Notes: a model not told the origin generated them from the letters alone. A stretch of DNA of 45,976 nucleotides from Candidatus Limnocylindria bacterium (GCA_035513115.1 DATKCP010000180.1:1-45976), one strand, 5' to 3'; counted from the stretch's first letter, positions 1 through 7,797 are shown. Numbers and translations: made by a program.

Positions 1-707
1 GCGCCGACCAGGAAGAGCGTCGCGAGCGTGATGGCGCCCATGTATGCGTACAACAGGTGCGACAGCGCCAGTCCGCAGAGCATCACGATCGCCAGGGCGC
101 GGCCCGTACCGCGCTCGAGGAGCGACCAGACGGCCGCGACCGTGAGGAAAGTGAAGTGCGCCGCCCACAGCTGCGTGTACATGCCGAACCCGCGCCACAC
201 GTAGCTGCCGTACTCGAGCCCGAAGAGGTGCGGCGCGGACAGCAGGCTCGACGCGCAGGCTGCCAGACAGGCCGCGCTCAGGCTGAAGCCCATGCGCCGC
301 AGCGACCAGAGCACCGTGAGGGGGAAAGCGACGAGCAGGATGTAGCGGACAGCGTTGAACAGCGTGACCACGTCGATCGTGCCGAACAGCGCCCGGTGCA
401 GCGCGGCGACCGCGACATGCGGCAGGTTCTGGTAGTAGAGGAACTGCGGGAAGCCGAGCTCGAGCTCCGGGACCCATGTATCGATCGGATTCTCGCCGCG
501 CGCGAACGCGTCACTCGCGCGCCGCACGAAGGCGAGGTGCTCCGCGTCGTCGTTCACGCTCGGCACGGCGACGGTGAGCTCGGGCAGCAGGGCGATGGCG
601 TTGAACAGGACCGGGACGGCGACCAGGGCGAGGAGGACTATCCGCTCGCGTCGGGCCGGCTGGTGCGGCTCGACGCTGCCGGCGAGCGCGCGGAGCCGCG
701 GGAGCAC
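1..707 (-). CDS. polytopic integral membrane protein, N-terminal part only (gene runs off the left edge); function unknown, possibly a membrane glycosyltransferase-like enzyme
   Basis: Absent from the ORF track because no stop lies in the window. Manual minus-strand translation from GTG at 707 gives MLPRLRALAGSVEPHQPARRERIVLLALVAVPVLFNAIALLPEL...ENPIDTWVPELELGFPQFLYYQNLPHVAVAALH...LLVAFPLTVLWSLRRMGF... It has several hydrophobic spans and G/C at nearly all third positions. It is the last gene of the co-directional 7797->1 cluster. Confidence 0.6.
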   Translation of the reverse strand, partial: MLPRLRALAGSVEPHQPARRERIVLLALVAVPVLFNAIALLPELTVAVPSVNDDAEHLAFVRRASDAFARGENPIDTWVPELELGFPQFLYYQNLPHVAVAALHRALFGTIDVVTLFNAVRYILLVAFPLTVLWSLRRMGFSLSAACLAACASSLLSAPHLFGLEYGSYVWRGFGMYTQLWAAHFTFLTVAAVWSLLERGTGRALAIVMLCGLALSHLLYAYMGAITLATLFLVG

Positions 708-732
708 CGCGCCTAGTGGCTGGGCGACCAGG

Positions 733-6200: not shown

Positions 6201-7797
6201 CGCGACCCGAGCGATCGACGATGACCGCGTCGCGCGAATCCTCGAGGACGAATGTCACGCTGTTCTGCGCGAACGCGCTCGCCTCCGAAGGCGCGCCGCC
6301 CTTCGATGTGACGAGCGTCATGTGGCCGGCCGTCACCGAGACGCTCGATTCGGCGGAACCCTCTACGCCGCGCACGTCCACGGCGCCCTCGGTTGTGCTG
6401 ACAGTCGTCAAGCCTGATGGATCGACCTGGATGGTGAATGCCGTCCCGGTCACCGACGCCGTCGCGGTCGGCGTGGTCACTGTGTATCGGTTGGATGACT
6501 GCGCACTGACGACGTGCCACGTGCTGCCTGAGGTCTGACGCAGCGTCGCGGCGATCGCACCGTTCGAACGGACGCGAAGCTCGACGATCTCGAACTCCGT
6601 TCCGGGCTCCAAAACGACGACCGTTTCGTCGAAGAACGTGAGTGCCGCGCTCGCGAGCGCACGCGTGCGCACACTGTCGCCTTGACGGATGACGCTGCCC
6701 GTTCCGGCCGGTGTGTATGCGCCGCTTCCGGTGCGCACATCCACGTTGCCCTGGAACACCGTGAGGTTCGCGCGCGCCTGCACGGCGCTCGCGGCGGGGC
6801 CAAGGATCACGGCGGACCCCGACAGGAACAGCAGCAGCGCCGCGAGCACCGCGGCGACGAGGAGGAGCGGACGGCGGGACTGCGCGCGCTGAACGGTGCG
6901 CTCGGTCTGTGAGATCGGCGCGATCTTCGGCGCCGCGCTGACGAAACCGCGCGCGATCGCGGCCGCGATCTCGCCGGCACTCGCGGTCACGACCGTGACC
7001 GGCACGTTTCCAAGAAGAGCGCTGACGTCGTTCGGGGTCTGATCGTCGAGCGGATCGGCCATGGCGAGGGTCGCTTCGCTGCGACCGAGCGCGACGAGCA
7101 CGACATGACGCTGGTCGCACAGGCGCTTCGGGAGCTGGCCGGCGACCGTCGGATCGATCGGGTCGTTGACCTTGCGCGGGCCGCGACCGATGCGGACACC
7201 GCTCTCGCGAGCGGCGAGCGAGATCAGAGCGCGACCGCTCACGCGGGACAACACCTGCGCCGCGCGAGCGTCCGGGACGAGTCCGGTCCGGATCAACGCG
7301 GCCGACAGACTCTCGCGCGCGCCGCGCGAAGCGGCCAGTCGTTCCATCTGCTCCTTCGTGAAGAGGTGCTCCGCGACAAGCGCATCGGCCAGGCTGCGTT
7401 CGATCGCGCTGAGCTCCGCCGGCTTCGCCTTGGCGCGCTGCAGCGCGACCTGGCGCAGGATGCGGAGCGTCTCCTGCGGTGCGGTGTCTTTTGAGATGTG
7501 CGCGACGGCGCCGACCGCGAGCGCGAGATCGCGGATCCCCGGGTCGAGGGTGAGGAAGACGATCGATGCGTCGGGCAGGAGGGGCCTCAGCTCGCGAGCG
7601 ACCTCGAGACCGGTCTTGCCCGGCATCGAGTTGTCGAGAAGGATCAGGTCCGGCTTGAGCTCCAGCGCCATACGGCTGGCCTGGACGCCATCGGCAGCTT
7701 CGCCAACGACGAGGAGCTCGTCGTCCGGCGCAAGCAGCGAGCGGATGCCCTCGCGGATCGCGAGGTGGTCGTCGGCGACGAGGACGCGTGTTGGCAT
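3205..7797 (-). CDS. 1530-aa multidomain protein: response-regulator receiver + GspE_N-like domain, one TM helix, FecR domain, collagen-like triple-helix region, tail-fibre-like repeats, small C-terminal domain
   Basis: aa 1-120: receiver motifs VLVADDH, DLILLD(55)NSMPG, IVFLT, HISKD. aa ~131-285: T2SS/T4P ATPase N-terminal-like ([19 protein letters not shown]..., [17 protein letters not shown]..., LAMADPLD). aa 309-333: the only hydrophobic helix ([22 protein letters not shown]). aa ~345-475: FecR-like ([21 protein letters not shown]). aa 661-957: (GXY)x99. aa 958-1433: T/G/A/N-rich repeats. The last ~97 aa contain 2 Cys. Confidence 0.9.
3499..3678 (-). repeat. five tandem 36-bp (12-aa) repeats [12 protein letters not shown] in the C-terminal fibre region
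   Basis: Protein aa 1374-1433: [60 protein letters not shown]. They sit inside a larger duplicated module (TGPAA.(A/T)FAID.G.A.A..IGGT.ATT.N.GR.GQ.QALLGNA.VAG) spanning about 3499-4038. Confidence 0.8.
4927..5817 (-). repeat. collagen-like (G-X-Y)x99 coding tract inside the 1530-aa gene
   Basis: Translation [31 protein letters not shown]...[12 protein letters not shown] has Gly at every third residue with no interruption. The plus-strand '[10 protein letters not shown]' ORFs are its mirror image. Confidence 0.9.
5030..5520 (-). repeat. near-identical long tandem repeats (about 234 bp / 78 aa period, built from 51-aa and 27-aa modules) within the collagen tract
   Basis: The protein module [51 protein letters not shown] occurs at aa 760, 838 and (partly) 889. 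DNA strings such as ggaccctgaggaccctgtggaccgacgggaccctgaggaccggtgtcaccagtaggaccagc recur around 5139 and 5373. Mirror ORFs start at 5180 and 5414, which gives the 234-bp offset. Confidence 0.75.

Follow-up and report, generated by a model that had tools for sequence, protein, structure and literature searches.

A candidate surface-fibre locus of Limnocylindria with a receiver-anchored collagen protein and a separable, putatively O-glycosylating gene pair

We describe a gene cluster at the left end of a 45,976-bp contig (GCA_035513115.1, DATKCP010000180.1), analysed over its whole length and referred to here as the window, from a soil Chloroflexota metagenome-assembled genome (MAG) labelled Candidatus Limnocylindria bacterium. 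Six open reading frames (ORFs), G1 to G6, lie on the minus strand between positions 1 and 7797 with a GC content at third codon positions (GC3) of 0.83–0.90. The co-directional, closely packed gene set proposed in a first-pass annotation of this DNA is borne out by the ORF list, strand and GC3. We think it somewhat probable, on balance, that these genes form a surface-fibre locus of Limnocylindria, with G1–G4 as the core of a receiver-anchored collagen fibre and G5–G6 as a separable O-glycosylation module. The earlier description of G1 as a fibre protein missed its N-terminal third, which contains a receiver, a GSPII domain, a transmembrane helix and a FecR domain. With these domains, what looked like a passive fibre becomes a fibre apparently wired into two-component signalling. 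The proposed role of the cluster as an assembly and modification system thus missed the signalling half of the fibre, but glycosylation is plausible in view of the YfhO-type G6 and of the family 2 glycosyltransferases (GT2) that adjoin the module in relatives.

Pfam places REC, MshEN, FecR, Collagen and BppL_N in the single frame of G1. The top NCBIfam match of the receiver is NarL (2.4e-21), and its active site is intact, with D9, D10, D54, T83 and K103 conserved in 60 orthologs. The LuxR/GerE helix-turn-helix output of NarL/FixJ transcription factors is absent, as Pfam gives no GerE match in G1. A GSPII domain follows on the cytoplasmic side; it was also considered as a receptor for cyclic di-GMP (c-di-GMP) and set aside, the binding motif being absent. 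One G1 subfamily is without GSPII and still has the receiver, transmembrane helix, FecR and collagen. Because basic residues precede the only transmembrane helix, the N-terminus of G1 is predicted to lie inside the cell. FecR stands just outside the membrane and leads into a β-rich spacer that extends up to aa 660; it comes alone, with neither a cytoplasmic anti-sigma domain nor a kinase domain found in G1 by Pfam. A stand-alone paralog of the juxtamembrane region is encoded on the same contig (42311–43390, minus strand): its 359 aa comprise a short tail, a transmembrane helix and FecR, with no receiver or fibre, and are 34% identical to G1 residues 333–573 (E 6e-27). Two database proteins, P0234 and P0236, are 41% identical to the receiver–GSPII part and carry a processive, cellulose-synthase-like GT2 in place of the fibre. 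Judged from these homologs, the receiver–GSPII module seems to serve more than once, each time controlling another extracellular product.

The extracellular part of G1 is dominated by its collagen stalk, in which 36 of the 99 triplets are G-X-Thr. Among genomes, stalk length varies from 68 to 375 triplets (~58–320 nm), as counted in the G1 orthologs of the related loci L009, L010, L015, L016, L021 and L023. The distal part is rich in Thr (18%) and Gly (16%), and its tip varies by genome: tblastn coverage ends before the tip in most loci, L004 and L025 have different tips, and other genomes carry unrelated domains in its place. Over 74 aa, the tip found in the window (3230–3450) shares 51% identity with the C-terminal end of PQ43W_44, a hypothetical protein of Ralstonia phage PQ43W (L109:4653-5255); the gene for PQ43W_44 lies in the phage virion module between head and tail genes. 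Neither the fibre head nor the spacer nor G2–G4 gave a significant match to any PHROGs family. Full-length NCBIfam profiles of collagen-like surface proteins score below their cut-offs (SclA 188/400, Lcl 153/500, SclB 143/325), with matches restricted to the collagen repeats. G1 is anchored by its internal transmembrane helix (aa 307–339), and neither LPXTG nor exosporium-type anchoring was found.

The three genes downstream of G1 encode paralogous proteins with a single transmembrane helix each, as had been noticed before; they share 29–36% identity over ~95 aa, with 14–19 invariant positions. The AlphaFold2 (AF2) model of G2 has a transmembrane helix at aa 10–40 and a barrel with a predicted local distance difference test score (pLDDT) of ~90. 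Foldseek places this barrel on Sm/LSm proteins (3by7, E 3.2e-4, target-normalised TM-score 0.72; many Sm/Lsm chains rank next), so that the outside domain of G2–G4 is modelled with an Sm/LSm-like fold. RNA binding by this domain, sited outside the membrane in the model, is unlikely. We found 832 homologs of G2, and a profile of the three domains (E ≤1e-3) gathers 3138 clusters, mostly proteins of 130–200 aa with an N-terminal transmembrane helix. Pfam has no model for the domain, even when 34 diverse members are tried; the only match is a C-terminal SH3 in two members. A viral fold library returned only unannotated small transmembrane Sm-like proteins.

Sequence conservation in G2–G4 extends beyond the barrel at both ends. 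The cytoplasmic N-terminal tails are conserved in G2 (3130–3192; I6, P9, R14 and R15 invariant), in G3 (2608–2680; AYRRAxxW..LRN) and in G4 (2180–2252; DPxRxxGRWLRW), which hints at cytoplasmic partners. The C-terminus of G2 (2677–2760) ends in (P/A)SP(T/S)R in 113 of 120 orthologs (P0001–P0120), after a variable Pro/Ala/Thr-rich linker, and the C-terminus of G4 is similar (SPxxRP). A fixed C-terminal peptide beside the gene of a tetratricopeptide repeat (TPR) lipoprotein suggests a TPR–peptide interaction or a processing or glycosylation signal.

This lipoprotein is G5, identified as such by TPR matches and an LVSC lipobox in keeping with the earlier call; in the loci compared, its gene always lies immediately beside G6 or a GT2 gene. 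G6 had been read as a polytopic protein running off the window, and its fragment exactly matches the partial protein VMQ78_08780 of Candidatus Limnocylindria. The full length of 728 aa was recovered from L001, a contig of GCA_040899835.1 that is 98–99% identical to the window and extends its left end. With this extension the guess of a GT-C glycosyltransferase gains support, as orthologs match YfhO (PF09586), and the statement that no accessory gene matches a nameable family is wrong for G6. All 12 full-length G6 orthologs match YfhO at E ≤0.1 (best 9.8e-10), only at model positions ~774–826; the L004 ortholog reaches 31.2 bits, above the cut-off of 28.5, and four of the 12 also match PTPS_related. 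The motif N52-D53-D54 in the first outside loop, ~13 residues after the first transmembrane helix, is invariant in the 12 orthologs and nearly so in 43 homologs. Searches of PDB sequences with G6, as single sequence and as profile, gave nothing useful. In streptococci, the YfhO-family proteins PgtC2, PgfM1 and PgfM2 attach sugars to extracytoplasmic regions rich in Ser/Thr and to adhesins of the same cluster (PMC12041528), and YfhO itself acts in the glycosylation of lipoteichoic acid (LTA) (PMC5836110).

A GT2 gene adjoins G5/G6 in about 12 relatives (L004/L008, L009, L011, L016, L021, L023, L024, L025, L027, L111 and L112). The cluster in L111 (L111:3361-9183) is a fuller glycan-synthesis cluster than that of the window: downstream of G6 come a GtrB-like GT2 with GT2_TM_C (C-terminal transmembrane helices, stop/start overlap) and a methyltransferase, and the opposite strand carries a GT4 gene and another GT2. 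Relatives of the N-terminal module of G6 with 52–58% identity (P0126, P0130, P0137 and P0142) are labelled Binataceae and Gemmatimonadaceae; many such relatives are called as truncated or frameshifted. By these sequence matches the G6 family extends well beyond Chloroflexota.

At the gene junctions, 12 nt separate the stop of G1 (3205) from the GTG start of G2 (3192), and a GTGA overlap at 2249–2252 joins G3 to G4, both as first described. The CTGA overlap claimed for G2/G3 (2677–2680) requires a non-canonical CTG start, and automatic callers begin G3 at the GTG at 2608. However, the peptide coded at 2680–2608 upstream of this GTG (AYRRAxxW...LRN) shows in-frame conservation in more than 20 loci. 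At least seven loci have CTGA at the junction; in L112 it reads GTGA, which gives a canonical start. Because both the upstream peptide and the junction are conserved among loci, this overlap is probably real. The ATGA overlap of G4/G5 (1317–1320) is present in the ORF, but the true gap may be up to ~40 nt, because the lipoprotein signal peptide MTRTLVALLFGAALVSC starts at Met14 of the G5 ORF and other gene callers choose shorter starts (182 or 190 aa). The gap before G6, given earlier as 26 nt, counts 25 nt (G5 stop 733–735, G6 GTG 707–705). A scan of 1–10500 for promoter-like sites found none with the sigma-70 consensus. Five terminator-like sites compare with a shuffle expectation of 2.6 ± 1.8 and are thus not in excess; all lie inside coding sequence. 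Rfam gave no match inside the fibre locus.

Gene order was compared by placing the window proteins on 27 genome or metagenome loci (tblastn) and on three loci from protein look-ups. The fibre gene is followed by G2-G3-G4 in every related locus with enough sequence. The pair of G5 and G6 (or GT2) comes straight after G4 in about half of the loci, among them the window, L001, L004, L009, L010, L021, L024 and L110–L112. It lies 1–5 kb from G4, often past an oppositely oriented NarL-type gene, in L011, L012, L015, L016, L019, L020 and L027, and it is inverted in L013, L023 and L025; in L005 G6 is missing. The earlier notion of one six-gene unit therefore holds for the conserved neighbourhood and the invariant G1–G4 but not for G5–G6, which is separable. 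Upstream, the proposed divergent pair of a membrane-anchored pseudo-receiver and a NarL-type regulator is confirmed, and both are conserved divergently in six loci; orthologs of the 148-aa pseudo-receiver stand beside G1 in L009, L010, L015, L016, L021 and L023. No gene for an extracytoplasmic function (ECF) sigma factor was found in the G1 neighbourhood. The MAG VBEY01 (isolate CF_38) has a fibre-G2-G3-G4 block on each of two contigs (L017 and L018), and this genome may hold two copies of the block, or the bin may mix strains.

More distant G2-like genes were found at 80 loci in a metagenome scan, with 31–63% identity and GC contents of 0.30–0.67. Usable flanks were available for 43 of these loci; there, large proteins (at least 600 aa) with a Ser/Thr/Gly/Ala-rich composition are overrepresented near the G2-like gene (13/140 within two genes versus 3/159 farther away, Fisher p = 0.008), with four of the 13 large proteins coming from one lineage. 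The G2-like gene is directly beside a protein with 12 transmembrane helices fused to TPR repeats at five loci, which represent at least three lineages. A Patescibacteria locus (L028:1795-10372, JBAZZL010000001.1) encodes a Ser/Thr-rich fibre of 1606 aa that bears an intramolecular chaperone domain (Peptidase_S74), followed by a four-helix-bundle protein, a polytopic protein of 557 aa that has no Pfam match, a 261-aa transmembrane protein and a G2-like gene (40% identical); fibre, polytopic protein and G2-like gene lie within 4 kb.

In the mechanism we propose, G1 would insert N-in/C-out through its one transmembrane helix, and its outside part would presumably trimerise via the 99-triplet collagen helix to form a stalk of ~85 nm, which would carry a shaft similar to phage receptor-binding proteins (RBPs) and an exchangeable tip. 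Inside the cell, the phosphorylatable NarL-type receiver and GSPII could let two-component signalling act directly on the fibre, or let the fibre report to signalling. The NarL regulator, the neighbouring tail-anchored pseudo-receiver and HisKA_3 kinases encoded nearby are the likely partners. For the N-terminally anchored G2, G3 and G4, with their outside barrels and conserved cytoplasmic tails, the most likely arrangement is a hetero-oligomeric platform close to the membrane, on which the base of the fibre would be assembled, held or coupled. The GT2, part of the G5-G6 module in many relatives, would load a sugar onto polyprenyl phosphate, and the YfhO-type GT-C enzyme G6, aided by the TPR lipoprotein G5, would move the sugar to Thr/Ser-rich acceptors outside. 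Candidate acceptors are the fibre, with its 36 G-X-Thr triplets and a head of 18% Thr, along with the Pro/Ser/Thr tails that end G2, G4 and G5. We also raise, tentatively, the more far-reaching possibility that G1–G4 is an undescribed surface organelle, in which a trimeric collagen fibre on a receiver base would be held by a hetero-oligomeric ring or platform of the three Sm-like proteins. Phosphorylation might then control display, clustering or adhesion, or the fibre might report load inwards like an integrin, and single-copy relatives of G2–G4 might serve giant fibres in Patescibacteria and other uncultured lineages.

Several observations weigh against a receiver-anchored fibre with its own glycosylation module. 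In many genomes the G5-G6 pair has been moved or inverted or lacks a part. The close loci all come from one class, with G2 identities of 57–85%, so that synteny is possibly inherited and not selected; the genomes being fairly closely related, shared gene order by itself says little about function. The full-length G6 of L001 reaches only 15 bits against YfhO (cut-off 28.5), over ~50 C-terminal model positions, and the window fragment has no Pfam match. The AF2 model of G6 aa 1–235 (pLDDT 83) finds no significant Foldseek match (all E >0.9); on the other side, query-normalised TM-scores of 0.45–0.56 occur only with STT3A, yeast STT3, Pmt1 and Pmt4, the others being ≤0.25, and this speaks for a GT-C-like G6. 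There is no GT2 gene anywhere in the window, and no GtrA/GtcA-type flippase was detected in its cluster. The proteins with 12 transmembrane helices and TPR repeats found beside distant G2-like genes are not detectably related to the G6 family in profile–profile comparison, and are a functional analogy at most. No relative of G2–G4 with a functional annotation was found in the PDB, Pfam or PHROGs, and an Sm-like fold is silent on function. Finally, the c-di-GMP motif of MshEN, two tandem 24-residue RLGxx(L/V/I)(L/V/I)xxG... elements (PMC5013675), is absent in G1 also in relaxed form, with three mismatches, Arg and Gly among them, at each of the two expected positions.

Other explanations share part of this evidence. 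It is possible, though we doubt it, that only G1–G4 is a functional unit and that G5-G6 is a general envelope glycosylation module, acting on a teichoic-acid-like polymer or a wall polysaccharide and lying near the fibre by inherited synteny. The separability of the pair (displaced by 1–5 kb, inverted, or lacking G6 in L005) fits this idea, and the best-studied YfhO proteins modify LTA or wall teichoic acid (WTA) (PMC5836110). G6-family proteins also occur in other phyla (Binataceae and Gemmatimonadaceae labels), with no fibre context shown. However, despite several rearrangements, G5-G6 still lies no more than ~5 kb from G4 in ~20 loci, and the presence of a TPR partner points to an acceptor that is a protein or peptide. 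Teichoic acids are not known from Chloroflexota. Moreover, streptococcal homologs of YfhO glycosylate proteins (PMC12041528). It is unlikely, in our judgement, that G1 is mainly a transmembrane outside-in sensor of the FecR type, with the collagen fibre as its antenna, G2–G4 as co-receptors and an output to the NarL regulator and not to the fibre. Such a sensor would account for the membrane-proximal FecR, placed as it is in anti-sigma factors, the intact receiver, the conserved divergent pseudo-receiver and NarL regulator, the conserved cytoplasmic tails of G2–G4 and the stand-alone transmembrane FecR paralog on the same contig. Yet receivers normally take phosphate and do not emit signals, neither a kinase nor an anti-sigma domain is present in G1, its neighbourhood contains no ECF sigma factor, and the G1 subfamily that lacks GSPII retains the receiver, transmembrane helix, FecR and collagen.

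The fibre itself might derive from a domesticated or resident phage, as a tail fibre or RBP or as part of a tailocin-like or contact-dependent weapon, with G2–G4 as its assembly chaperones. Collagen repeats are common in phage fibres, and the BppL_N neck motif, the tip shared with the virion-module protein of phage PQ43W, the swapping of tips between genomes and the occurrence of small transmembrane Sm-like proteins in phages all fit such an origin. We nevertheless regard it as very unlikely, as neither the window nor the loci contain further phage genes, no PHROG family matches, the chromosomal setting with its regulators is constant across genomes, and the fibre is covalently joined to a membrane anchor and a receiver. 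It is still more improbable, and to our minds hardly credible, that the long G1 ORF is an artefact of assembly or gene calling that fuses a response regulator to a separate fibre gene over collapsed repeats. The collagen DNA is indeed a highly repetitive series of tandem repeats, and L001, whose sole difference from the window is the number of repeat copies in the fibre gene, is broken in the stalk region by a 200-N gap (L001:6638-6958) and called as two genes. Six independent assemblies without Ns, however, give one ORF from receiver to tip (1555–2485 aa), with G2 starting 11–90 nt later; the single-ORF architecture recurs in ~60 database orthologs, and REC, MshEN, FecR and Collagen are joined in many database proteins.

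A close parallel to the putative glycosylation module is the streptococcal Pgf/GtrB-PgtC2 system of protein O-glycosylation, in which a GT2 and YfhO-family GT-C enzymes are encoded beside the adhesins Cnm or WapA (PMC12041528). Both settings place a polytopic enzyme of the YfhO family, in G6 a candidate one, beside a Thr-rich adhesin-like gene, with a GT2 partner (here adjacent in relatives) and Ser/Thr-rich extracytoplasmic segments as candidate acceptors. In contrast to that system, G6 matches only the C-terminal end of YfhO and has a TPR lipoprotein as its partner, GT2, epimerase and GtrA-type flippase are all missing from the window, and the host belongs to Chloroflexota and is not a Firmicute. 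The likeness of G1 to BclA of the Bacillus exosporium, Scl1/Scl2 of streptococci and Lcl of Legionella lies in a long G-X-Thr-rich stalk, a globular distal domain and a variable repeat number. G1 differs from them in its anchor, an N-terminal transmembrane helix fused to a cytoplasmic receiver and GSPII where the others use LPXTG or an exosporium motif, in its phage-fibre-like distal part, and in NCBIfam scores far under the cut-offs. Eukaryotic TMTC O-mannosyltransferases are GT-C enzymes that use TPR domains. The combination of TPR repeats with a polytopic GT-C-like enzyme for secreted proteins is shared with G5-G6, whereas in the window the TPR repeats are on a separate lipoprotein.

Collagen-repeat phage fibres and RBPs, such as BppL of the lower baseplate of lactococcal phage TP901-1, share with G1 the BppL_N neck, the repeat shaft, the exchangeable tip and one phage tip homolog; the G1 locus is instead chromosomal and regulator-linked, without phage neighbours or a PHROG match. 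FecR-type transmembrane anti-sigma factors and FecR lipoproteins (LipL45, Lsa33) likewise have FecR just outside a single transmembrane helix, but the cytoplasmic part of G1 is a receiver, no ECF sigma factor is nearby and the C-terminal extension exceeds 1000 aa. Response regulators with MshEN/GSPII (Bd2402) and MshEN–glycosyltransferase fusions (PMC5013675) resemble G1 in joining a receiver to GSPII, as do the GT2-synthase-fused paralogs P0234 and P0236; the output of G1 differs in being an extracellular structural fibre. Literature searches on Limnocylindria collagen, on receiver, FecR and collagen in combination, and on membrane-bound response regulators found nothing relevant.

Table 1. 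Features of the fibre locus and its divergent neighbours; positions refer to the window, and residue numbers to the respective protein.
Feature	Position	Strand	Description
G6	1..707	-	First 235 aa of a polytopic glycosyltransferase candidate of the YfhO family (GT-C), 728 aa at full length; remainder off contig
G5	733..1320	-	TPR lipoprotein; lipobox LVSC, Cys30; Ser/Pro-rich tail; TPR family matches
G4	1317..2252	-	311-aa paralog of G2 and G3; conserved C-terminal extension of ~150 aa; Pro/Ser/Thr tail
G3	2249..2680	-	Paralog of G2; probable CTG start, 143 aa; alternative GTG at 2608, 119 aa
G2	2677..3192	-	171 aa; conserved cytoplasmic tail, transmembrane helix, outside Sm/LSm-like barrel (AF2, Foldseek), Pro/Thr-rich linker, C-terminal PSPTR
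G1	3205..7797	-	1530-aa bitopic membrane protein, predicted N-in/C-out; receiver and extracellular collagen-stalked fibre
G1 distal fibre	3208..4824	-	BppL_N-like neck, aa 992-1016 (PF18338, 36 bits); Thr/Gly/Ala-rich repeat shaft; C-terminal tip of ~90 aa
G1 collagen stalk	4927..5817	-	aa 661-957; 99 uninterrupted G-X-Y triplets, ~85 nm; PF01391, 1.1e-39
G1 FecR domain	6379..6678	-	aa 374-473, extracytoplasmic; PF04773, 35.8 bits
G1 single transmembrane helix (signal-anchor)	6781..6879	-	aa 307-339, only hydrophobic segment (hydropathy scan); preceded by RAQSRRP
G1 GSPII/MshEN-like domain	6949..7410	-	aa ~130-283, cytoplasmic; PF05157, 38.7 bits (cut-off 23.1)
G1 receiver (REC)	7462..7785	-	aa 5-112, NarL/FixJ subtype; PF00072, 66 bits
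Intergenic region between G1 and the divergent regulator pair	7798..7976	.	Presumed promoters; sigma-70 consensus scan negative
Tail-anchored receiver-like protein	7977..8423	+	148 aa; C-terminal transmembrane helix; without acidic DD pair; divergent from G1
NarL/FixJ-type DNA-binding response regulator	8482..9129	+	84-98% conserved; co-located with G1

Elsewhere in the window, a Wzx-like flippase had been proposed to follow the regulators; a 414-aa protein does match Polysacc_synt, but at 24.4 bits, below the cut-off of 28.2, and it is conserved in only two related loci. A Mrp/ParA-type ATPase with DUF1858 lies at 10397–11431 (minus strand; annotation from the L001 equivalent, the ORF list over-extending it to 542 aa), with a small Trm112p-like gene adjoining. 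A metal-homeostasis cluster at 12056–21257 comprises an ABC-3 permease, ZnuA, two Fur-family regulators, a CopC-CopD-YtkA fusion and a c-type cytochrome. The remaining genes are of housekeeping type (ZnuA, ABC-3, two Fur genes, CopC/CopD, TldD/PmbA, DXS, CcmF and CofD) and, apart from the stand-alone FecR paralog at 42311–43390, have no bearing on the fibre locus. One tRNA gene (42227–42297, plus strand) is the sole Rfam match of the contig.

Limnocylindria are abundant, uncultured Chloroflexota of soil and freshwater whose cell surface is essentially unknown. A response regulator with an extracellular fibre of 85–320 nm as its "output domain" would widen the repertoire of two-component outputs. 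The link of an unannotated Sm-fold family of more than 3000 clusters to giant surface fibres would provide a first testable hypothesis for this family, including its members in Patescibacteria. If our reading of G5-G6 is right, the YfhO/TPR/GT2 module would extend a recently recognised route of protein O-glycosylation past the Firmicutes.

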